NCBI GenBank assembly: GCA_963792585.1
Contig: CAWBWI010000002.1
Location: forward strand, 96,001-160,000
Origin: Candidatus Eiseniibacteriota bacterium
Lineage (GTDB): Bacteria > Eisenbacteria > RBG-16-71-46 > CAIMUX01 > VGJL01
Direction: 5' to 3'
DNA: 64,000 nucleotides
Shown piece after piece: positions 89-14,155 of this stretch. A model generated the notes under the pieces. That model was not told the origin of the DNA. It made no database searches and saw only the letters and a program-made list of their open reading frames with translations. The translations under genes were made by a program, and so were the position numbers. Positions within the stretch are counted from its first letter, which is position 1. Every line of letters begins with the position of its first letter.

Positions 89-950
89 CTAAGGCCGCCC
101 TTCAGTCGGCCCGCGACCCACAGCAATTCCAGCAGTTACGGCCGGACCCCTCCCCTTGCGGTAAGGGGAGGACATAAGGGGAGGACGGAGCTCGTTCACC
201 GCGCCCGTCAGGTGCGCCCGAAGCTCCTCGCGGTCTCGCCAAACCATCCACCAGCCGGACCAATGCCCCGCAATGCACGACTCGACGGATCGTCTTCTCG
301 GAGCAGAGGCGCCGGGCACGAAGGCACACAGCCCGAACTCGGGCCAGCCGAAGAGCCCCCCGTTTTGACGCTGCCTCTCGTATGCCCCGATTTTCCGGGC
401 GAGAACGGACAGCGCCTCCGTTCCAAGGTCCACTTCCAGGGCTAGGCGAATGGCGAGCGGGTCGTCACGACGTCCGATCGAAAGCTGAACCACGGCGTCC
501 GGAATCACGGGGGATCCGACCGTGTCGGGATGTTCTCGAATCTCCCAGTCGGACCGAACCAGATCGAGTCGCAAGCCGTCAATTTCGGTCGGCCACGATG
601 GCCAGATCAACCCAGGCGCGAACAATGGACAGGTGGTGCGCGACGCCGCCGCGTGGCGCCCGCAATGGCTGACCGCCATGTGCCTGGACCCAGGCGCGGC
701 CGGCAGGGCCGAGGACGTAGCGGTTCTCCTCCGATCGGTCACCAGAACGGACGTCAAGAAACCCGGCATCGAAGAGCCGACGCAGTCGACAGGCAACCGT
801 GTCCCGCCGGGTGTTGGGAAATGCGAAGCAAACTAGGTCGCTGGTTCGAGCCAGACGAAATCGGGCAAGCGCATCAAGAACGACCTGGTCCCGCTCAGAC
901 AGGCGGACGCGTACTCCGCTGCGGCGGCGGTCTCGTGGCTGCCGACTCAT
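89..950 (-). CDS. Replication-relaxation (Replic_Relax) family protein, split by a frameshift near 580-600
   Basis: N-half (579..950): LSERDQVVLDALARFRLART, RLRRLFDAGFL, HHLSIV. C-half (frame of 89..796): IPDAVV...LALEVDLGTE..LARKIGAY. ATG at 950 overlaps the upstream stop (ATGA). Confidence 0.8.
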
Positions 951-1285
951 GACGGATCCCGCATCAGGGGGTTGAGGATGGGGATTCCGCAATGCCTGCA
1001 CGGGGTCCAACCCGCTGACTGTTTGCAGACGCGGCAACGGGCGAAGACCCACCCTTCATGCAGGTGGGCCGGCGCCGCGCTCGAGCACTCGAACACACCA
1101 TAGGCCGGACTCTCATGGCCCCGGGGACAGATGAGAGTCTCAGAACGAAGCTCGGGCAGCATTCGGAGAAACCAGACGGTCCGACGGACGGTCTGAAGGC
1201 CCAGCCAGACGGTGGCGAGGATCCAGGACCCCGCTCGAAACACGGTGAGGACCATTCGCCCCGCCAATCCGAAATCCCCGTCCAT
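947..1285 (-). CDS. Small membrane-anchored Cys/His zinc-ribbon protein
   Basis: Hydrophobic N-terminus, then CPRGH, CRVC and CRHC motifs. Tightly packed between the VirD4-like and relaxase genes. Confidence 0.6.
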   Translation of the reverse strand: MDGDFGLAGRMVLTVFRAGSWILATVWLGLQTVRRTVWFLRMLPELRSETLICPRGHESPAYGVFECSSAAPAHLHEGWVFARCRVCKQSAGWTPCRHCGIPILNPLMRDPS

Positions 1286-1290
1286 GTCCG

Positions 1291-2850
1291 TTACCCCAGA
1301 CACGGGAACGACTCGTCCCGCCCTTCCGCGTCCGTGTTCGTGAAGACCGGCTTGCCCCGTCTCGTAGCCTCAGGAGCGCACTCCAGGTCCGCTTCGACCC
1401 GTTCGCGGGGTAACGCCACGATCCCGCGCTCGAGAAACGCACGGATTTCGTCAGGCAGCCCTTCACCGGTTGCCCGAAGCCTTGCAAGATCAAGTCGGGG
1501 CGAGCGCACCTTCTGGGCACGAAACGGCCGGCTCTTCAGCCACAGGTAGAAGGTGCGATTCGGCAGTCTTGGAATCTCTTCCAAGAGTCGTTGGCGTTCG
1601 GCGTGCGCCTGCTTCGGGTCGGCGCCGAGCGGCAAGGCGTGGGTGATCGACTTGGCGTCCTCGAAATTGGACCGGAAGATCGCTTCCAGGTCGGCGTTCG
1701 TGCGCAGGAGCTTCACCAGGCCCGAATCGAGTTGCGCGATCTGCTGATTGATGAACGTGAGCCCCACTTTTTCGTGTCGCGCCAGCGCCAGGAGGCGGCT
1801 GAACTGCTCGGTCTGCTTGCCAGATACCGCTTCCTGGAATTCCTCGAAAAGTACCCAGGCTTGCCGGGACCGATCAGTCAGGCGCCGCGACAGAATCGCC
1901 CGGCTCAATCGTCCAACCAGGATGCCGGCCCAGAACCGCGCCGCCCGTTCCGCACCGGCCGGGGGGTCTCCGAGGTCGATCACCGTCACGCCCCGAGAGA
2001 GGCTGTCCGCGAACGAGACACATCCGGGAGTGGAAAGCGCGAGGCGCGTTTGTCGCAGGAAGAGAAATACGTCGAGCCGGGCAATGAGCGCATCAACCGA
2101 CGCCCGCGCTTCTCGGGCGAACGTGCCGGCGGCGTACTGCCGGATCACCGGGTCGGAAGAGTTCCGCGCCTCGTCTTCGAACGTGCGGGGCTGTTCCAAC
2201 CACTGCTGCAACGCGGTCAGAGGTAGATTGCGCTCGATGGCGAGCGAAACGAGCTTCAGAAACACGCGGTTCATGCGGATGCCGAGATCGTTCCCGATCG
2301 TGTCCTCGATGGCCGAGGCGATCGCGAAGGCCTGGACTTCACGCGGAACGCCCGGCTCGGGCAGGGTGATGCGAAGCTCGGGCACGTACCGCGCGTCAAA
2401 GGGCCGAATGATCCTAAGCCGTTCGAGTAGCCGGCACCCGCGATCGGTTTGGGCGAGCTGCGGCAAGGCCACCTGGGTGAGGAGCACCGAGAGTTCGCCC
2501 TTGAGGTCTACGAGTACCACCGGATGCCGGCCGGATCGAAGCACCTGAAGGAGCAGGGCGAGCACGAAGAAGCTCTTGCCCGCACCGGTGCTGCCGGTAA
2601 TCCAGCTGTGCATCGAGAGCAGCTCTCTGGCGGGAAGCCCAGCCCAGAACGCCTCTCCCTCGAGCGAGACAACTCTGGCCAGGCGGACCTTGCTACTCCG
2701 GCTGCCCACCGCCATCGCCTGCTCGAAGCTCCGCTGGTCGCGCCGGGCGTCGTGGTCCTTCTCCAAGGCGATTTGTCTCTGCCAGTGCCGGGCGCGCTCT
2801 TCCTCTCCGTGGACGAGCCGGGAGCGCAACGACAGGAATGATGAGTGCAT
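1291..2850 (-). CDS. VirD4/TraG/TrwB-like type IV coupling ATPase
   Basis: Walker A GSTGAGKS, VLVDLKGE, Walker B FEEFQE, LARHEKVGLTFINQQIAQL. Lies next to the relaxase. Confidence 0.8.
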   Translation of the reverse strand: MHSSFLSLRSRLVHGEEERARHWQRQIALEKDHDARRDQRSFEQAMAVGSRSSKVRLARVVSLEGEAFWAGLPARELLSMHSWITGSTGAGKSFFVLALLLQVLRSGRHPVVLVDLKGELSVLLTQVALPQLAQTDRGCRLLERLRIIRPFDARYVPELRITLPEPGVPREVQAFAIASAIEDTIGNDLGIRMNRVFLKLVSLAIERNLPLTALQQWLEQPRTFEDEARNSSDPVIRQYAAGTFAREARASVDALIARLDVFLFLRQTRLALSTPGCVSFADSLSRGVTVIDLGDPPAGAERAARFWAGILVGRLSRAILSRRLTDRSRQAWVLFEEFQEAVSGKQTEQFSRLLALARHEKVGLTFINQQIAQLDSGLVKLLRTNADLEAIFRSNFEDAKSITHALPLGADPKQAHAERQRLLEEIPRLPNRTFYLWLKSRPFRAQKVRSPRLDLARLRATGEGLPDEIRAFLERGIVALPRERVEADLECAPEATRRGKPVFTNTDAEGRDESFPCLG

Positions 2851-2856
2851 GAATCG

Positions 2857-3210
2857 CTACTCCTCCTCGAAGGGGAGTTCAGGGTCATCGTCTTCAGGAA
2901 TCCTTGCTTGATCGTCGAAGGGGGCGTCGTCGGCCGGACGCCGGACCGTGGCTCTTTCTCGACGCTCCCACAGCTCTCGCTCCCGCGGGGTTCTGGCCGC
3001 ACCGGATTGAGTGAATCGATGAAGGCGCGCAAGCAGTCCGATGCCGAACAGAGCCCAGAAGAGTCCGCTGAGCGCCCATTCGAAGAACCCGCCGGAAGGC
3101 GCGCCGTGCGGCCTTGAGCCGATCAAGGTCTTCCCAAGCTCAGCGAGCGTGGTCGGCAGGACCATGACGATGAGCGCCAGGACGATGGCGCCTTTGGCCA
3201 GTCGTGACAT
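2857..3210 (-). CDS. Small two-TM membrane protein
   Basis: Two hydrophobic segments and an acidic tail. 2-6 nt spacing to neighbours. Confidence 0.65.
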   Translation of the reverse strand: MSRLAKGAIVLALIVMVLPTTLAELGKTLIGSRPHGAPSGGFFEWALSGLFWALFGIGLLARLHRFTQSGAARTPRERELWERRERATVRRPADDAPFDDQARIPEDDDPELPFEEE

Positions 3211-3212
3211 GG

Positions 3213-3809
3213 CTACTCCAGGGCGAGGATGGTCCTGGACGGGACCTCACACCGGACACCGTCTGACAGGATCAGGATGGAGCGGGAACGGCCGCGCTTC
3301 TCAATCACGACCCGCTCGCCCGGCCGGATCACTCGATGGGTCGTCGCATCCTCAAAGAGCAGGCTGTCCACGACGATCCCCGGTCCATGCCACGGCTTGG
3401 TGTCTTTCCCCAAGAACCCACCCCAGACCCAGCCGCCATACTCCCCGGGAACGCGCACCTGATACCAGCCGTTCTCTGACTTCTCGATCCGGGCTTTGTC
3501 GCCTACGGTAAGAAGTCGGTACACCCGAGCAGAACTGTTCGGTGCGGCGCACAGAGGTACGTTCTCCGCCACGATCCGGCTATGAAACTGCCGCATGGAT
3601 GCTTCATGAACCTGATAGCCAGCCACACCGACGATCACCAATAGCAGGATCACCGCACAGGCAATGATCTCACCACTCACGCCGCTCGGAGCTGTTGCTT
3701 GCGGTGTTGGCCGGGGGACGCTTCGGGTTGCCGGGTTCGAGAGTGCTCGGGCCACCTCGGGTCGGAGGTTTCCGTATTCGTCGGCCAGCCAGTCCGTGTC
3801 AGAGTTCAT
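3213..3809 (-). CDS. Membrane-anchored bacterial SH3-domain protein
   Basis: TM segment IIACAVILLLVIVGVAG, then SH3b pattern NVPL..PNSSARV..L..GDK..I..ENGWYQV....GWVWGGFL. Confidence 0.7.
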   Translation of the reverse strand: MNSDTDWLADEYGNLRPEVARALSNPATRSVPRPTPQATAPSGVSGEIIACAVILLLVIVGVAGYQVHEASMRQFHSRIVAENVPLCAAPNSSARVYRLLTVGDKARIEKSENGWYQVRVPGEYGGWVWGGFLGKDTKPWHGPGIVVDSLLFEDATTHRVIRPGERVVIEKRGRSRSILILSDGVRCEVPSRTILALE

Positions 3810-4935
3810 TGCATCCCGCCTCGCTATCTGTCTTCCAGCCACACACCGGGCAGGGCTCCCGTCGGGCTACTCGGGCATGGATCAGGTCGAAGGGCATGTT
3901 GAATAGCTCGGCGAGTCCGCCTTGAGGAACACTGCCGCCGTGCAACAGCAGGAATTCGTGGCCGGAAGCAACAAGGTCTGCACGGCTTCCCATGGGATCC
4001 AGGAGAGCGAGGACGTGCGCGGTGGCAACAGCGGACAGGTACGCGATATCTGCTCCAAGGCCGGGTTCCGCTTCGAGGCGCTCAGTGTCGGCCGACTGGT
4101 AGGCTTGCCGACGTTCCTTGACCGACACTCCTTCGCCGAGGCCCAGCCGGAAACCAATCGCACAGAAGGCACAAGGTCCTTGGCCCGGCCGCACGACGAT
4201 GATCTCACCGCCTGAGGCGCGCTCGTAAGCTCCAATGAAGATGCCCGGAGTGTTGGTCCGATGCAGCTTTCGTTTGCCACGAAATTGCGCGGCCGGACTG
4301 TCGGTGGAGGCGACAACCACATCCGATGCTCCGATCAGCTTGTCCAGATCGGCCTCTGAAAGTGTCAGTAGATCGATGTCATGCCCGTCACCGTGGGCCA
4401 GGCGCCGCTTCAAGAGATCGGCCACGACACGGACCTTGGGTCGGGCGAGATCCATGAGGTCCCCCGCATGACGGGAGAGGTTGGCGGCGTCTAGCGTATC
4501 GTTGTCGACGATTCCGAATCGACCGACTCCGGCTTCCGCCAGCAGAAGGCCGACCTGCGACCCGACGCTACCGGCGCCGACGAGCAGGACTGAGCGCTCC
4601 GCCAGACTCATCCCCGTAGAGGGACGGATCCGTCGACTGTCCAGACCTTCCTCCACATCGACCAGATGGACCTCATTTGGTCTCGGTAGCCCGTGGCGAA
4701 GCTTCAGCGCGTACTCGTTTCCGTCCACGCTGAGAATCAGCGAGCCCGGATGAATTGGCTTCCTCGTTGCGATGCCGAGTTCCTCCAGTTGACCGTCTGG
4801 CCAGGGTTCGCTGCTCAGAATCTGGATAAGGCTTTCGCTCAGTCTTGCCAGGCCGTAGACGGGCGACGAGTCGCTTGAAGATGCTGCGGCCAGGATGGCC
4901 TGCCTGCTCGCTACGAGCCGAGGCGCGACACTCAT
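3799..4935 (-). CDS. ThiF/E1-like adenylyltransferase
   Basis: VLLVGAGSVGS, IVDNDTLDAANLSRH, PKV, VVASTDS, Zn motifs CAFC and CPVC. A short compensated double frameshift is likely at ~4260-4285 (alternate frame reads FVANESCI). Confidence 0.9.
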   Translation of the reverse strand: MSVAPRLVASRQAILAAASSSDSSPVYGLARLSESLIQILSSEPWPDGQLEELGIATRKPIHPGSLILSVDGNEYALKLRHGLPRPNEVHLVDVEEGLDSRRIRPSTGMSLAERSVLLVGAGSVGSQVGLLLAEAGVGRFGIVDNDTLDAANLSRHAGDLMDLARPKVRVVADLLKRRLAHGDGHDIDLLTLSEADLDKLIGASDVVVASTDSPAAQFRGKRKLHRTNTPGIFIGAYERASGGEIIVVRPGQGPCAFCAIGFRLGLGEGVSVKERRQAYQSADTERLEAEPGLGADIAYLSAVATAHVLALLDPMGSRADLVASGHEFLLLHGGSVPQGGLAELFNMPFDLIHARVARREPCPVCGWKTDSEAGCNEL

Positions 4936-5458
4936 GCGGGACCTTCTCCTTTCCTTTCGGCGGTTCATTCAGAAGAATCCTTCGAATCCGCGGGTCCGAA
5001 TCGGGCACGATTTCAATGGGGATCTCCACGAAATCGTCGGCCTCTCGTGTCATCAGGTAGGCGCGCAGATGGACCTCACCGTCTTGAAGCGTTGCGATCG
5101 GGAACGCAGCCATTTCCGTGTCCCAATCCGGACTCGTCACAATCTCTCGGGCTGTCTGCCAGTCACGGCGACTCGGATGGTCCATTCGACCTGGGTGGAG
5201 GTGGACATCCCCTTGGTAAGAGAGAGTGAAGCGCTTAAAGAGATAGTCGAGATAGTGCTGTTGCCAGGCACAATCCGGCTCGAAGCCCGTCAGCGAGCGT
5301 CCAGCATTCGGCCCCGCCGGCACGACAAAGGGCACGATCAGATCTTCGCCAAGTTTGCCGCCGACCAATATGGCGCCGGTCTCTGTTTGGCTGTACTCAA
5401 GGCAATCATTCACAAGCATGTCGTGCGCTCGATTGGACAGGACTAGAGTCGGAGGCAT
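4673..5458 (-). CDS. JAB/MPN+ metallo-isopeptidase (true end probably ~4932)
   Basis: ETGAILVG ... HLHPGRMDHPSRRD matches the E..HxH-x7-SxxD JAMM motif. ATG overlaps the E2 stop. The ORF runs ~260 nt into the E1 gene, suggesting an indel. Confidence 0.85.
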   Translation of the reverse strand: MPPTLVLSNRAHDMLVNDCLEYSQTETGAILVGGKLGEDLIVPFVVPAGPNAGRSLTGFEPDCAWQQHYLDYLFKRFTLSYQGDVHLHPGRMDHPSRRDWQTAREIVTSPDWDTEMAAFPIATLQDGEVHLRAYLMTREADDFVEIPIEIVPDSDPRIRRILLNEPPKGKEKVPHECRASARSEQAGHPGRSIFKRLVARLRPGKTERKPYPDSEQRTLARRSTGGTRHRNEEANSSGLADSQRGRKRVRAEASPRATETK

Positions 5459-5875
5459 CAAAACACCTCCCCGTTTTCGAGCCAGTTGAGATAGGCGATC
5501 AGCCAGGAGGCAGCGAGCCCGACACAGCTTGCGGCAGTCCCGGTCATCGGATCCCACGATGCCTTGTGCACGCAGATGCTGTGCGTCATCTGCATAGACA
5601 TGCGGCGCACCTGATTGAAGAGGCGGATGCTCGAGAAACAATTTGGGTTCGGAGTAGGGGAATTGCGTCGGATAACGCAGCGAGACAACGAAGGGATATC
5701 CTGGAACCGGCTCAAGGACCCCGACCCATCGGAGCCCGCCGTCCCCAGCCTGCGCAAGCTTGAAGCCTGGGAAGCGACTTCCCATGATTTCAGCCTCAGC
5801 CACCAACCGTGATCGCCACTTCGGGTCTTCCCACCACACGGTTTGGCATACCTCCCGGCGAGGGCGAGAAGGCAC
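5458..5875 (-). CDS. Prokaryotic E2 (UBC-fold) protein, frameshift near 5582
   Basis: RLVAEAEIM, WVGVL, YPTQFPYSEPKL, APHVYADD / SICVHKASWDP..TAASCVGLAASWL. The catalytic Cys lies after the HVY motif once the frames are joined. Confidence 0.8.
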
Positions 5876-5898
5876 CCGCCCCCGCCGTCTTGTGGGTT

Positions 5899-6538
5899 CT
5901 AGTTACGCCGAGTTGACTCGATCACCGAGAGGCTCTCCACCCCTCCTGCGACCTCGTCAGCGCGGATTGTGAACAGCCGTCCATTGATAGCCACCGCGAT
6001 GGCCTTCTGGCCTGCGGTGACGAGAAGCCGATCAGGAGAGGTCAGGATCGCTGCGTGCTCGCCATCGGTCGGAGGGTTGGGTAAGTACGACAGGACGACC
6101 TTGACGGGCTCGGGGCCGGTCGACCGGCCCTCGTCTACCCACCTCCCAGATCCGGGAATCGCAGTCACTCCGCCTGCGATTTCGAGGAGCGAGGTTTCGA
6201 GCGCGGCCGCACCGAGATCGGCAGGAAGTCGGTGACCGCTGCGGTCGTTCACAGGTGCAAAGACAACCAACTGGCGTGCGTTCTTCAGCGCATTCGCCAG
6301 CCCGGCCCGGTCGGTTCTGGGATCGGGCAAGTCCTCGCATCCACCGACGACAGCTAGCCCGCCGATTGAGAGGCCGAAGGTGCGCGGCACCAGCTTCGTT
6401 ACCTTCCTTGTGGGTAATCTGTCCGCCCGTTCGGCTTGTGGGGTCTGAGCCTCGCGGACATGGCCGATTTGGATCGACTTCGACCTCGCGATCGCGACGT
6501 ACGACGGCATCACGCAGCCGCCGCAGGTTCTCGTTCAT
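5899..6538 (-). CDS. Hypothetical protein heading the E2-JAB-E1 operon, frameshift near 6466
   Basis: Strong RBS (AAGGAGGT) before ATG 6538. Joined frames give MNENLRRLRDAVVRRDREVEVDPNGHVRE...TKLVPRTFG-LSIGG-LAVVGG followed by an alpha/beta domain (GGVT..PGSGRWVD..EPV..GQKAIAVAING). Confidence 0.65.
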
Positions 6539-7134
6539 CGAACACCTCCTTTGAGTGTGTGGACCTGCGTCATCCCAATGTCACCGTGAATGGCGTCTCG
6601 TATACACCAGCCACGGCATCGTACGTTAAGAAACACATCGTGCTTCCATTTCGTGAGCCGTAGTTGTTCGCCACCTGAAAAACGCAGCCACGTGTAGTAA
6701 ATGCGATAGCGATGAGTATGAAGCGCCTGCCGTTCGGCTGGCGTCATTGCTCCAGGCCGAAGCTTGGCTGTCTTCTCTATGGCCACGCGCAGTCGAGGCG
6801 GCTCGATCGATTCGATGAAGCGCGCAAGCTCCGCTTCCGCCAAGGCATCCCAGGGAGTACGGTCGTCCTTTGCAGTCGGGTATGTGAGTGCTGTCGACCT
6901 GCTGTCTGATGCGAGAACGTGCTGGCGTTGGTATAGGGTCTCGCGGCGACAGACATTGAACATGCGCAGTTTCGCGATTCGCACGCTGCGCCCTTCGATC
7001 AGGGCGGCGATCAGTGCCGCACTGAGGCACTCGTCGGCCAGGTGGGAATCGCGGCCCGCAATCCGGCGCGCATAGCAGCGCAGGATCTGAACGATCTGGT
7101 CCTGGGTCAGCGGCCGAGGCGTGGATTTCGGCAC
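6535..7134 (-). CDS. Hypothetical protein, weakly sigma-70/ECF-like
   Basis: LRCYARRIAGRDSHLADECLSAALIA resembles sigma region 2. Stop overlaps the next ATG. Confidence 0.4.
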   Translation of the reverse strand: MPKSTPRPLTQDQIVQILRCYARRIAGRDSHLADECLSAALIAALIEGRSVRIAKLRMFNVCRRETLYQRQHVLASDSRSTALTYPTAKDDRTPWDALAEAELARFIESIEPPRLRVAIEKTAKLRPGAMTPAERQALHTHRYRIYYTWLRFSGGEQLRLTKWKHDVFLNVRCRGWCIRDAIHGDIGMTQVHTLKGGVR

Positions 7135-7905: not shown

Positions 7906-9522
7906 GTGACAAGATCAATGCGCTCGAAAACACAGGTAGCCGACTGGAGTGGTCCCAGCGCCCTCGGCGAGATGCTTCATCGCCTCCGTCCCCAAGCCCG
8001 CTCTATCCTGGCCGTCCTCACGGCCGCCGCGAGATGGCCGGAGAGATACCCCGCGGGACTTGTTCCCATAAGAGAGCTATCCGAAAGCTCGCGCTTCATC
8101 ACCGACAACCCAACCAGTATTCGCCAGGCCGTTCATCGAGCCCGCCAACAATTCCGCGTCCTCCCCGGCGTTTCCACGACCGTGCAGGAGCGCATGCACC
8201 TGCGTTTCGAGACACCTCCGGACCAACACCTCGTGGATTGGTTGCATGAATCCGGTTGGCGGGATCTTCGACCGGAATTTTGGCGGGAGTTCCTGCGATC
8301 TGCTCCTGCCCCTGATTCTCCAAGTGATGCGATGCAAACGCTGGATGCAATCGTTGCGCGTCGCCTTGTTCTCCAAGGCGACTGCGCTGGAGCGCTGTCG
8401 CTGACCACGGCGGCGCTCCGACGTGAAACCGATCCGTATCACCGCGCGGGTCTAATTCTCGTTCGCGTTCTGGCCCTCAACGAGCGCGGATTAGCCAGTG
8501 ACTGGATCGCTGCCGAAAGGTTGCTTCGTGAGGCCTCCCGACTCGCGCGTTCGGGTTTGACGACGCGTGATCGTGTCGTTCTTTGCCGAGTGTGGGTTGA
8601 GCTGGCCTACACGCACCTGCTGGCCCTCGGTCGGGAACCTGCGAGTGCCACAGCCACTCTCCGGCATTTAGAGTCCGCAAGTGCCTGGCTGGATCGTTCT
8701 CGGCCCCTGGAGCCGGCTCTGGAGTCCTTGGACCGCGCCCGAATCCTTGAGGTCGGGGGCCTGCTCCGTGCATGGGAGGCGCGAAGCCCCACCGGGTCGA
8801 TACGGGACAAGCCTTACGACGAAGCTGAGGGCGACCTCCTGCGATCCCTTTCCCTTTACCGGGCTACCGGTGACGGCAACGGCGTACGAAACGTGATGTT
8901 CCAGCTGGGGGAGCTCTGCTATGACCGATCCCGCCTCCATCGCCTGCCTGCCTCCGAGGAGCCCATCGCTGAAGCGTTTACCTGGTACTATGCCAGCCTG
9001 CAATTGAGCACTCGCCTCGGTCTATCTGAAGGGTCGGCTTTGGTCCGAGCCCGCCTTGCTGAGCTTCTAGGTATCCTCGCGGAGATTCGATTCCGACTGA
9101 GTGCCTTCTCCCCCCATGCTGAGCGGGTTCGGATGACGCAGCTCGGACAGCTTAGGAGCTACGCAGCCCTCCCGCAGAAGCAGGCCCTCCAGGAGATGGA
9201 CGACTTCCTCAAGCCTCTGTGCGAACATGCGCATCTGCTCGAGAGCCTTCGACTGGCGTGGCGAGCCGACACCGTCCTGGCCGGAGTTGTCGGGAAAAAC
9301 CCAACGGAGTACCGCATCATCAAGGAAATCATGAACCGCCTTGCTCAGTTCGCCCGGTCCGCGGGCATCCTCCAGATCCGGGACGCTGCGACGCTCAAGC
9401 AACAGCACAGTGTATTCCTCCTGATGATTGGCGCGAAGAAGGAAGGGCTGTTGGACGTTGCCCTGCCCCCCGGCTGTCCGGATATTGGCCCCAACAAGAA
9501 AAGAGGCACCTACGATCTGTAG
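7906..9522 (+). CDS. Hypothetical helical-repeat (TPR-like) protein with possible N-terminal HTH
   Basis: 538 aa Ala/Leu/Arg-rich helices such as YDEAEGDLLRSLSLYRATGD..VMFQLGELC and EAFTWYYASL. Confidence 0.55.
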   Translation: MTRSMRSKTQVADWSGPSALGEMLHRLRPQARSILAVLTAAARWPERYPAGLVPIRELSESSRFITDNPTSIRQAVHRARQQFRVLPGVSTTVQERMHLRFETPPDQHLVDWLHESGWRDLRPEFWREFLRSAPAPDSPSDAMQTLDAIVARRLVLQGDCAGALSLTTAALRRETDPYHRAGLILVRVLALNERGLASDWIAAERLLREASRLARSGLTTRDRVVLCRVWVELAYTHLLALGREPASATATLRHLESASAWLDRSRPLEPALESLDRARILEVGGLLRAWEARSPTGSIRDKPYDEAEGDLLRSLSLYRATGDGNGVRNVMFQLGELCYDRSRLHRLPASEEPIAEAFTWYYASLQLSTRLGLSEGSALVRARLAELLGILAEIRFRLSAFSPHAERVRMTQLGQLRSYAALPQKQALQEMDDFLKPLCEHAHLLESLRLAWRADTVLAGVVGKNPTEYRIIKEIMNRLAQFARSAGILQIRDAATLKQQHSVFLLMIGAKKEGLLDVALPPGCPDIGPNKKRGTYDL

Positions 9523-12376: not shown

Positions 12377-14155
12377 CTACGGCAATTGACCGTTTGGGGG
12401 CGCAACCGTCATGATGTCCGTGCACTTCGAGAGATCCCCGACGTTAGCCCAGGTTGTTCCCCCGTCCGTGGAAGTGAAAACCCCGTCGGTACCCACGGCG
12501 TAGATCTGCCCGGTCGTCGGATCGATATCCAGGTCCGCCAGTGCCCCGGCCGGGACCGTCCATCCCGACCAGGTCCGGCCGCCGTCTGTGGAACGATCCG
12601 AACCGATGTAGACGATGTCGGAGTCTCGGGGATCAAAGAGGATAGAACGCCACTCGGCGGCAGGAGAGACCTTGGACCAGGACGCCATGGCGTCCTCACT
12701 CATGTAGATCCCTTGATTCGTGCAGGCAAGGGACCGCTCATGGTGCTGGGGATCCACGGCGACCGTATGGATGTCGACCAGGGTTTGTCCGTCGGTGACA
12801 CCGATGGTCAGGGGCGCCCAGCTGGAGCCGCTGTCCGTGCTGACAAAGAGTCCGTTCTTCTCCGTTCCTTGATCAAGGTCTTCCATGCCGACGTAGAGCC
12901 TGCTTGAATCGTCAGGGTCCATAAGGATCGCGTGCACCGCCGAATGTTCCTCGGGATGGAGGGGCATGGCCGGCAGGCCTTGGGAGATGTCCGCCCAGGA
13001 GAGTCCTGCGTCCGTCGAGCGATAGACGCCTCCGGCCTGGCCGAGGCAGTCGTTGCATTCAGACTGCCGGCAGTGCCCCTTGGTTCCAACGACGAGCAGC
13101 CCCGGCACGGCCGGACTGACGGAGATCGACTGAATGCCAGTGCAAGCAAGCAGTGTCGGGCTGCTCACGAGTTGCCAGTTCCGGCCCCGGTCATCACTCC
13201 GGTAGATCCGCGTAAGTCCCTGCCCCGTCCAACCGGGAACGCCTGAGCAGGCGTAGGCGGCACTCGGATCGGTGGGGTCGCCCGCGAGCAACCCGATTTG
13301 GCTCCGAGAGTCTGAGAGCGTCGCCCGGTTCCAAGTGAGCCGGGCGTCGCTCGAGTACCAGATGCCCGTCTCCTTGGTCGCCACCAGAACCTGTGCGCCA
13401 GCCAAACGCGTCTCTCCAATCGCGGTATTTGAAGCGATCGACCAGTTGCCCGCCTGGTCGACGCTCTGGAGGCGAAAGGCGTAGGTGGTTCCGGACAGAA
13501 GGCCCGCCACCTGCATCGTTTGGGTCGTCCCGGCTGCCGACGCCGACGGTTCTCCAGCCGCCTGAGCGAGCGAATCCCAAGCGGCGCTGGGGGCCGTCCC
13601 ATATCGCAGATCGTAGCCACTTGCCTGGCCCGACGGGCCGCGGTCATGCGGCGCGGTCCACGCCAGCGTGATCGAGCTGGGACCGGCAATCGCGACCCGA
13701 AGATCGGAAATGGGATCGGGCGCCTCGGTGTCGCCTCCCGCGGAGCGGAAGAACCACTCCGTCTCATCGTAGTCTGCCCGGGACGGGTCGACGAAATCGC
13801 AGTGGGTGTCCAGGCGCAACCGACCGTCTGACTCGACGATCGCGGCTTGGGTCTTTAGGGCATAACCTTGGTCCCAAATCAGGGAGAGCTGACCGTCGTC
13901 CGCGTCTTCCCCCGAAACCTCGATCTCGCCCCAATCGCAATCCTCCGGATGGCAGCCTCCCCACATATGAACTGATAGGCCTGCATCCACTTTCCGAATC
14001 CACGCTCGGGTAATGCCGCCGGCATTGGCGCTCTCGTTGCGCCAATCAGCAACGAATTGCGTTCTCGCATCCGGCTTCGTCGATGCGCCGTCGCCACAAC
14101 CGGCGGCGCTCACTCCAAGGACTAAACCCAACAACCAAAGATCTCGAGTATTCAT
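12377..14155 (-). CDS. Lipoprotein with fibronectin type III domain and BNR/Asp-box beta-propeller
   Basis: Lipobox SAAG-C. FN3 pattern ISDL..SITLAWTAP..YDLRY..GLLSGTTYAF..VDQAGNWS. Repeated SxDxGxxW Asp-boxes. Confidence 0.85.
   Translation of the reverse strand: MNTRDLWLLGLVLGVSAAGCGDGASTKPDARTQFVADWRNESANAGGITRAWIRKVDAGLSVHMWGGCHPEDCDWGEIEVSGEDADDGQLSLIWDQGYALKTQAAIVESDGRLRLDTHCDFVDPSRADYDETEWFFRSAGGDTEAPDPISDLRVAIAGPSSITLAWTAPHDRGPSGQASGYDLRYGTAPSAAWDSLAQAAGEPSASAAGTTQTMQVAGLLSGTTYAFRLQSVDQAGNWSIASNTAIGETRLAGAQVLVATKETGIWYSSDARLTWNRATLSDSRSQIGLLAGDPTDPSAAYACSGVPGWTGQGLTRIYRSDDRGRNWQLVSSPTLLACTGIQSISVSPAVPGLLVVGTKGHCRQSECNDCLGQAGGVYRSTDAGLSWADISQGLPAMPLHPEEHSAVHAILMDPDDSSRLYVGMEDLDQGTEKNGLFVSTDSGSSWAPLTIGVTDGQTLVDIHTVAVDPQHHERSLACTNQGIYMSEDAMASWSKVSPAAEWRSILFDPRDSDIVYIGSDRSTDGGRTWSGWTVPAGALADLDIDPTTGQIYAVGTDGVFTSTDGGTTWANVGDLSKCTDIMTVAPPNGQLP

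Follow-up and report, generated by a model that had tools for sequence, protein, structure and literature searches.

What does a bacterial E2-JAB-E1 gene set conjugate when no gene for a ubiquitin-like protein (Ubl) lies beside it? This question is raised by a 64,000-nucleotide (nt) stretch of DNA from a Candidatus Eiseniibacteriota bacterium (assembly GCA_963792585.1, contig CAWBWI010000002.1, positions 96,001-160,000), referred to here as the window, to which all positions refer unless another contig is named. Its minus strand carries, in this order, an open reading frame (ORF) beginning at 6538, genes for an E2, a JAB peptidase and an E1, and then genes for an SH3 membrane protein, a small membrane protein, a coupling-protein-like ATPase and a Replic_Relax relaxase. 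The initial annotation had described adjacent or overlapping E2, JAMM and E1 genes without a Ubl, ThiS/MoaD or CD-NTase neighbour, and had proposed that they act on a modifier other than ubiquitin. The gene set is borne out by Pfam (ThiF), PADLOC (JAB) and an intact E2 relative (P0002). The lack of such a neighbour is borne out as well: no beta-grasp gene was found near the cassette, the genome's three ThiS matches all lie on other contigs, the Prok_Ub profile has no match in the source genome (84% complete), and the genome's only SMODS cyclase match lies ~61 kb from the cassette, accompanied by its own E2. No SMODS cyclase or effector was seen in homologous cassettes. The Multi_ubiq profile matched nothing anywhere, its positive control included, and is hence uninformative.

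Our analysis supports the proposal of a non-ubiquitin modifier and puts a name to it. On the evidence of conservation, genomic linkage and a modelled complex with E1, the missing modifier is probably a conserved peptide of ~55 amino acids (aa), encoded at the start of the 6538 ORF (6373..6538, minus strand) and ending in RTFG. Leaving its biological role aside, we consider it likely that this peptide is activated and conjugated by the E1/E2/JAB pathway; the whole would then be a ubiquitin-like conjugation pathway with a short, largely unfolded peptide as its modifier.

The candidate modifier peptide

In the window, one extra base near 6466 splits the peptide over two frames, the 6538 frame and then the 6513 frame, and in a three-frame reading peptide profile A4 matches both parts (6467-6538 and 6373-6465). 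A sensitive search with the 6513 frame returned 32 proteins. Five relatives (P0004, P0012, P0013, P0018 and P0024) start with a stretch matching the 6538 frame and continue into the 6513 frame; since they join the two in one protein, the true precursor spans both. In five genomes (G038, G081, G082, G097 and G120), the same N-terminal part forms a gene of its own that stops at FG or two residues further. The initial annotation had thus missed that the 6538 ORF encodes the precursor of a peptide, is interrupted near 6466 and continues into a domain resembling S-adenosylmethionine (SAM) lyases, while its statement that there is no Ubl stands. A Shine-Dalgarno-like GGAGG lies upstream of the peptide. 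With the window's 6538 ORF as query, a word-based search found only the ORF itself, and all Atlas matches were below 0.8; DUF3574, found on 43% of one Atlas cluster and in a sub-threshold Pfam match of P0014, is a lead only. The whole 6538 ORF was also considered as the modifier, through a GG near its end, and this was rejected, as 23 relatives show no conservation of that end.

The peptide comprises an N-terminal helix, a two-strand hairpin, a linker of charged residues and proline, and a C-terminal TKLxxRTFG. A first profile, built from nine stand-alone peptides, gave 145 matches of 29-107 residues, 120 of which were listed and analysed; most relatives are 51-65 aa long. Among the 120 matches listed, the motif T-[KR]-[LI]-x-x-[RH]-x-F is present in all, T and F are invariant, K and L are each found in 119, and the residue after F is Gly in 117, Ala in two and Ser in one. 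Conservation stops sharply at this Gly. The next residue is variable, with Ala (37), Val (16) and Arg (11) among the commonest, and the tail has no residue in three matches, one in 40 and two in 50 (zero to two in 93), and at least three in 27. The linker between hairpin and motif, parsed in 116 of the 120, measures 9-21 residues, is rich in Pro, Glu, Ala and Asp, and contains nearly no hydrophobic residues. No family in Pfam or NCBIfam matches the peptide.

A beta-grasp consists of four to five strands plus a helix. The initial annotation had allowed that the 6538 ORF might fold in this way, and the AlphaFold model of the fused relative P0013 speaks otherwise: its peptide part is predicted as one helix (residues 3-13), two short strands (19-21 and 27-29) and then coil. 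A fold search covered little of the peptide part and was not counted for fold assignment, and a single-sequence fold of the window's 6538 ORF was unusable (predicted local distance difference test score, pLDDT, 33.5).

The link between peptide and enzymes was followed across the phylum, in 206 genomes, nine of which were matched by the E2 profile. Eight of these matches are at E 3e-30 or better, and a peptide profile made from 34 database peptides, all of them other sequences, matches exactly these eight. There the peptide always lies upstream of E2, and the order peptide-(lyase)-E2-JAB-E1 is found in seven of the eight carriers, the contig of the remaining one (G003) stopping after E2. The weaker E2 matches (one in G132 and second ones in G120 and G000) adjoin cyclase genes, Pfam-checked for the one in G000 only; with this E2 query, a cyclase-linked E2 was seen in two of the eight carriers (G000 and G120). 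When nine metagenome loci were chosen by the peptide alone, five ran on into E2, JAB and E1 (two having the same sequence, so that four are distinct), and the other four ended within 17-368 bases, two of them inside the lyase gene. Nor do the homologues always carry a canonical Ubl, as the initial annotation had considered possible: the optional lyase gene aside, too little DNA separates peptide and E2 to encode one. Among viral contigs no relative of E2 or of the peptide was confirmed, the peptide was not found in plasmid or phage collections, and the C-terminal part of E1 was not found in plasmids; plasmid E2 matches are 25-33% identical, and one is annotated beside a cyclase. A scan of wider genome contigs used one narrow pattern and returned three loci.

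The enzymes and a proposed pathway

The E2 gene (5458..5839, minus strand) encodes a UBC-like protein with a His and the catalytic Cys. One extra base near 5583 breaks it in the window, and P0002, which is intact and 73% identical, has both residues in a single frame. The Cys is invariant in six of six homologues, and His and Cys together in 12 of 12 aligned sequences, two of them cyclase-linked E2s; that of G132, being out of frame, was left out of the alignment. The best models are PADLOC E2s of cyclic oligonucleotide-based antiphage signalling systems (CBASS; to E 9.6e-21), and the protein aligns end to end with cyclase-linked E2s. NCBIfam has no model matching it, and P0002 carries PF26395 as a precomputed label.

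The JAB/JAMM metallopeptidase gene (4673..5458, minus strand; catalytic domain ~5458-4990) starts at 5458, overlapping the E2 stop; the product is recognized by PADLOC JAB (E 8.6e-12), and its Glu and HxH-x7-S-x2-D are invariant in nine of nine homologues. The JAB frame extends 263 nt past the E1 start in the window (4673-4935). At six of the seven loci measured, this overrun amounts to 95-263 nt in a constant relative frame, with an Arg-rich, amphipathic-looking end, and in G038 JAB and E1 are fused in frame. The overlap is possibly neutral, or else may produce a fusion by frameshift.

The ThiF-type E1 gene (3799..4935, minus strand; Pfam ThiF E 8.6e-22) has two compensating indels near 4280-4260. 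Its product of 378 aa consists of a ~100-aa N-terminal domain and a single ThiF adenylation domain, with two CxxC pairs. The Gly-rich loop, NLxRH, Lys, TxD and first CxxC are invariant in eight of eight homologues, and the second CxxC in all seven that reach that far; by motif they correspond to MoeB Gly41, Arg73, Lys86 and Asp130 (residue names as given in PMC12355090). The catalytic residues of all three enzymes are conserved. Among solved proteins the E1 profile scores best with ThiF and MccB (E 3e-16 to 5e-16), but UBA5, MoeB and Cap2 are nearly tied with them, so the ranking means little; 48 solved sequences are matched at E 1e-5, and BubCD is not among them. The idea that the N-terminal domain is a dead JAB was unsupported (hhalign probability 0.3%).

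The frameshifts in the cassette are most likely assembly errors, because in the same assembly rpoB is in 12 pieces and gyrA in four by profile match. That the window holds a cluster of pseudogenes in decay is very improbable: frameshifts do affect the genes for the peptide, E2, E1 and the relaxase, the last being spread over two frames (89-1052), but rpoB and gyrA are broken too, the catalytic residues are kept, and relatives have intact genes.

Fused in frame behind the peptide Gly, the window encodes a SAM-lyase-like domain (5899..6372, minus strand), for which the model of P0013 predicts the ferredoxin/PII-like fold of SAM lyases. Residues 79-192 of that model match the phage SAM lyase 6zm9 with Z 11.0 and a root-mean-square deviation of 3.1 over 112 aligned residues (next match 7.1; Foldseek E 1.9e-5). 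G122, E134 and Q168 are invariant in 23 of 23 relatives and match Svi3-3 G56, E69 and Q104 by motif and spacing, and Gly56, Glu69 and Gln104 are described as the only three strictly conserved SAM-lyase residues (PMC7877911). With Svi3-3, T3 SAMase and the CRISPR SAM-AMP lyase the domain thus shares a fold and three residues, but it is 15% identical and fused to a peptide, and its cleavage of SAM or SAM-AMP, the reaction of these trimeric enzymes, is putative. A profile search of the PDB with the lyase alignment gave repeat-protein noise only and did not reach 6zm9 by sequence. P0003 (2904 aa) and P0011 (2285 aa), in which 14 and 10 stretches match the lyase-like middle, may likewise be repeat-protein noise. 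Fused and split forms of peptide and lyase both occur, with the junction right after Gly: the domain is fused in the window and G003, separate in L033, L035/36 and L037, and absent in G038, G081:C8, G082, G097, G120, L030 and L032. Eight of the 206 genomes contain it; five times the peptide is missing, and the domain precedes transfer genes of the same type.

A complex was modelled from two copies of residues 95-372 of the G120 E1, ATP and the mature peptide, and scored 0.83, compared with 0.20 for the best control; at least 93% of contacts are shared between model runs, and the partner pLDDT is at least 58. In this model, peptide residues 48-56 contact the E1 Gly-rich loop (122-127), TxD (212-214) and 236-240, and the hairpin (residues 18-30) contacts E1 352-362 and 260-265, so that the two conserved blocks of the peptide correspond to the two contact patches. 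The model places the peptide end in the E1 adenylation site and supports a binding of the peptide by E1. The RTFG end is also alike to that of three neighbouring E2-CBASS-type cyclases, encoded beside related E2s, which end in NTF[YF]G plus a short tail; the corresponding C-terminal Gly is reported to be the conjugated residue in E2-CBASS cyclases (10.1101/2022.05.25.493364).

We therefore envisage the following pathway. JAB would cleave the precursor behind the RTFG Gly and so take off a tail of one or two residues or, in the window, free the SAM-lyase-like enzyme; as the peptide is fused to that domain after its Gly, cleavage would be needed there. An E1 dimer, as modelled, may then dock the hairpin on an edge strand, seat the nine C-terminal residues in its ATP site and adenylate the Gly. 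Because E1 has no catalytic Cys, the peptide could pass to the E2 Cys directly from the adenylate or through an invariant E1 Tyr, and both routes are conceivable since BubCD is reported to have a Tyr at the crossover-loop position (PMC11601596) and Cap2 without its E1 Cys still forms conjugate in vitro (10.1101/2022.03.31.486616). E2 would finally ligate the peptide to an amine, probably a lysine, of a target, and JAB could reverse this step.

Several points weigh against such a pathway. E1 has no crossover-loop Cys, none occurring from the first CxxC up to the helix after it, where ERRxAY is invariant instead; its Tyr281 is not among the modelled peptide contacts. Ending at FG by construction, the peptide profile selects the motif, though not the stop position or the variable tail, and the cassettes of G082 and G120 are near-identical, kin that do not count as independent. 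The peptide part of the P0013 model (pLDDT 52-85) is the weaker because alignment A5 placed the N-terminal parts of stand-alone lyases onto peptide columns. The complex may pass through its likeness to solved E1-tail complexes, and the score mark used for it, reached by 116 of 157 solved pairs and by 2 of 215 mismatched pairs, comes from a calibration that covered neither own alignments nor ATP. Complex (G120) and fold (P0013) were both modelled on relatives rather than on the window's broken copies. The window lyase has Lys at the position of Svi3-3 Glu105, and no target, E3 or effector was identified for the cassette.

Relation to known conjugation systems

With Bil (BilABCD, types I and II; operon type 6c for type II), the cassette shares the modifier-E2-JAB-E1 order, which Bil has as separate genes throughout (10.1101/2023.09.26.559546), and, as proposed here, the trimming of a modifier precursor to a C-terminal Gly and the lack of an E3 (10.1101/2023.09.26.559546; PMC11601596). 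The Bil E1, however, is a tandem of inactive and active adenylation domains (IAD-AAD) with a CYS domain, whereas the window E1 has one ThiF domain and no Cys after the first CxxC. Type II CBASS and E2-CBASS (type II short) resemble the cassette in having a non-beta-grasp substrate whose disordered tail ends in a conserved Gly, and E2-CBASS has the closest E2 by sequence, the window E2 keeping the His and Cys of that family but lacking its C-terminal loop. CBASS operons include a cyclase and an effector, of which the cassette has neither; Cap2 of type II is an E2-E1 fusion, while the JAB gene separates E2 and E1 at all loci showing them; and the substrate is a cyclase in CBASS but here a bare peptide without enzyme activity of its own. 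In type I Bub (6E/DUF6527), an E1 Tyr takes the place of the crossover-loop Cys, and JAB releases the modifier from a fusion as proposed here (PMC11601596). The invariant Tyr281 of the cassette E1 is a candidate counterpart of BubCD Y370, and the JAB-E1 fusion of G038 is a further likeness. The Bub E2 has a catalytic Ser where the cassette E2 has its invariant Cys, and the Bub modifier is a beta-grasp fused to E2, whereas the present one is not a beta-grasp and is fused to a lyase. DUF6527 (BubE) had no Pfam match among 14 neighbouring ORFs, no search having been aimed at it. Peptide or carrier adenylation of the MccB/ThiF type uses no E2 and is partnered by exporters, sulfurtransferases or biosynthetic enzymes; in the cassette an E2 is always present and such partners are unseen. 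Pup and UBact, too, are short, largely disordered tags with a conserved C-terminus, but they depend on a glutamine-synthetase-like ligase and the proteasome instead of E1, E2 and JAB.

The cassette combines the gene order and, putatively, the precursor trimming of Bil with the tail and E2 type of CBASS and a Bub-like E1, yet each of the three has a defining feature that the cassette lacks. Operon types 6a-6e, as described in the passages of PMC1779556 consulted, do not include it. A literature search that reached few subscription journals and no supplementary operon tables, which could list the family unrecognised, returned no paper on it; a match of the operon to an already described system, envisaged by the initial annotation, was therefore not found in that search. 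From sequence, it is well supported that the cassette is an undescribed form of bacterial ubiquitin-like conjugation, with putative ligation of a dedicated peptide tag. Such a tag would consist of little more than a docking hairpin and nine tail residues and may indicate the minimal recognition need of an E1. Cyclase tails and free modifiers would be linked through it, and ubiquitin-like chemistry would be connected both with the cargo of mobile elements and with a SAM-lyase-like enzyme. With four genes, the system is small enough to be rebuilt in E. coli.

The host element and the role of the cassette

Behind E1, on the minus strand, lie the gene for the membrane protein with a bacterial SH3 domain (3213..3809) and the transfer module of the host element (89..3210); the module comprises the small membrane protein (2857-3210), the coupling-protein-like ATPase (1291-2850), a small Cys-rich protein (947-1303) and the Replic_Relax relaxase (89-1052). 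The SH3 protein follows E1 wherever there is enough DNA, has a conserved N-terminal motif on the cytoplasmic side (WLADDEGNLRP-like) and is a candidate target or adaptor. Just left of the window are an integrase gene, 92% identical to that of G025 (cargo DNA 64-68% alike), and a transfer-messenger RNA (tmRNA) gene. At a distance of 90 kb to the right, 29 bases of the tmRNA 3' end occur a second time (G000:C2:93712-183718), and as this repeat brackets the whole window, it suggests that the window lies entirely inside one ~90-kb island. Two ATPase subtypes carry the cassette; since they occur in 16 and 14 of the 206 genomes, compared with eight for the cassette, and several related elements examined have no E1, we read the cassette as accessory cargo of a tmRNA/tRNA-type integrative element.

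A second cassette, with an unrelated peptide, occupies the same slot in three other elements (L057:5085-7150 in G081:C3, L059:479-2545 in G073:C24 and L063:4432-6479 in G138). Its peptide measures 21-33 residues and has an aromatic-His end; next to it are a divergent E2-like gene, which has no Pfam match and whose product begins with a hydrophobic stretch, JAB and E1. The G073 peptide is made of two 11-residue repeats, and JAB and E1 are fused in two of the three.

As to the role of the tagging, our leading guess, held at somewhat less than even confidence, is that it helps the element against host defences, a decoy for CBASS included. We rank this ahead of anti-phage defence, regulation of transfer and small-molecule chemistry because the cassette is tightly joined to transfer genes and shares its slot with SAM-lyase-like genes, and SAM lyases are described as phage counter-defence enzymes (PMC7877911). 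Bil-type anti-phage defence, in which the same chemistry would conjugate the peptide to a phage structural protein or prime an effector and the element would carry the cassette to the advantage of its host, is a serious contender though also short of even. It would agree with the Bil gene order, Bil and type II CBASS being reported defence systems (PMC11601596, 10.1101/2023.09.26.559546), with the E2-CBASS locus in the same ~90-kb island, and with SAM(-AMP) lyase relatives that act in type III CRISPR defence and perhaps also in anti-CRISPR (PMC12255297). Against it, at every readable locus the cassette runs in the same direction as the SH3, ATPase and relaxase genes and is closely linked to them, rather than being scattered in defence islands, its slot neighbour has a fold first known from phage counter-defence (PMC7877911), and neither CapH/CapP nor a WYL regulator was noticed beside it, no profile search having been made for them.

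Taken by itself, the decoy form of counter-defence is unlikely. Here the peptide would copy the cyclase C-terminal tail, and the cassette would tag or jam the host CBASS E2/Cap2 or cyclase; the likeness of RTFG to NTF[YF]G in the three cyclases, the closeness of E2 to E2-CBASS E2s and the coexistence of both systems in G000 and G120 fit this, but the motifs differ by one residue before Gly, common descent explains their likeness, a decoy has no need of its own E1, E2 and JAB, and only two of the eight carriers showed a cyclase-linked E2 with the query used. Regulation of the element's own transfer, or entry exclusion, by attaching the peptide to the SH3 protein, coupling ATPase or relaxase is rather doubtful. 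The SH3 protein with its conserved motif at all loci with enough DNA would suit it, as would the second cassette in the same slot; the ATPases are nevertheless commoner than the cassette, and since several such elements have no E1, transfer does not need it. Least probable among these roles is small-molecule chemistry, with the peptide as a precursor like those of ribosomally synthesized and post-translationally modified peptides, or as a sulfur or amine carrier, adenylated as by MccB (microcin C) or ThiF (ThiS), and a small molecule as the final acceptor. Among solved proteins, ThiF and MccB come closest to the E1, which lacks a catalytic Cys, but their lead is the near-tie noted above, an E2 that keeps its Cys is never missing, and no exporter, sulfurtransferase, rhodanese or biosynthetic gene was seen in the cassettes.

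Returning to counter-defence, a wider scheme can be speculated, which we think possible but would not expect to hold in full: interchangeable E1-E2-JAB cassettes on integrative elements would tag proteins with bare peptides as counter-defence, JAB would free an anti-restriction SAM lyase from the tag precursor, and a Cys-less E1 would relay the peptide via Tyr to a Cys E2, intermediate between Bub and Bil. If true, peptide tagging by E1 and E2 would be a general, diversifying class, as at least two unrelated peptide families in the same slot would imply, and this would be the first ubiquitin-like pathway used by an invader rather than a host.

The E2-CBASS locus (cyclase, E2 and HNH-SAVED) lies at G000:C2:160864-163900 (L022), just right of the window in the same island, and the end of its cyclase resembles the peptide's motif. 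Directly upstream of the peptide, the 6535-7134 ORF is sigma-factor-like by eye, matches no Pfam family and is weakly like an ORF at the corresponding place in G038 (E 0.053); a promoter scan gave 0 sites, with 0.9 expected. At four loci, small genes with CxC..H or KC motifs stand just upstream of peptide or lyase (L008:5295-5519, L009:10840-11076, L048:~1070-1274 and L050:~1166-1393); they have no Pfam match, and by eye we take them to be like the Mu Com zinc finger. Elsewhere an M23 peptidase gene, absent from the window, is inserted between the SH3 and ATPase genes (L007:11227-11940, L025:3316-4272 and L023:1842-2588). Further along the window are a divergent TPR-containing protein on the plus strand (7906-9522) and a lipoprotein-like Fn3/BNR-repeat protein on the minus strand (12377-14155), the latter shared with the G025 element.

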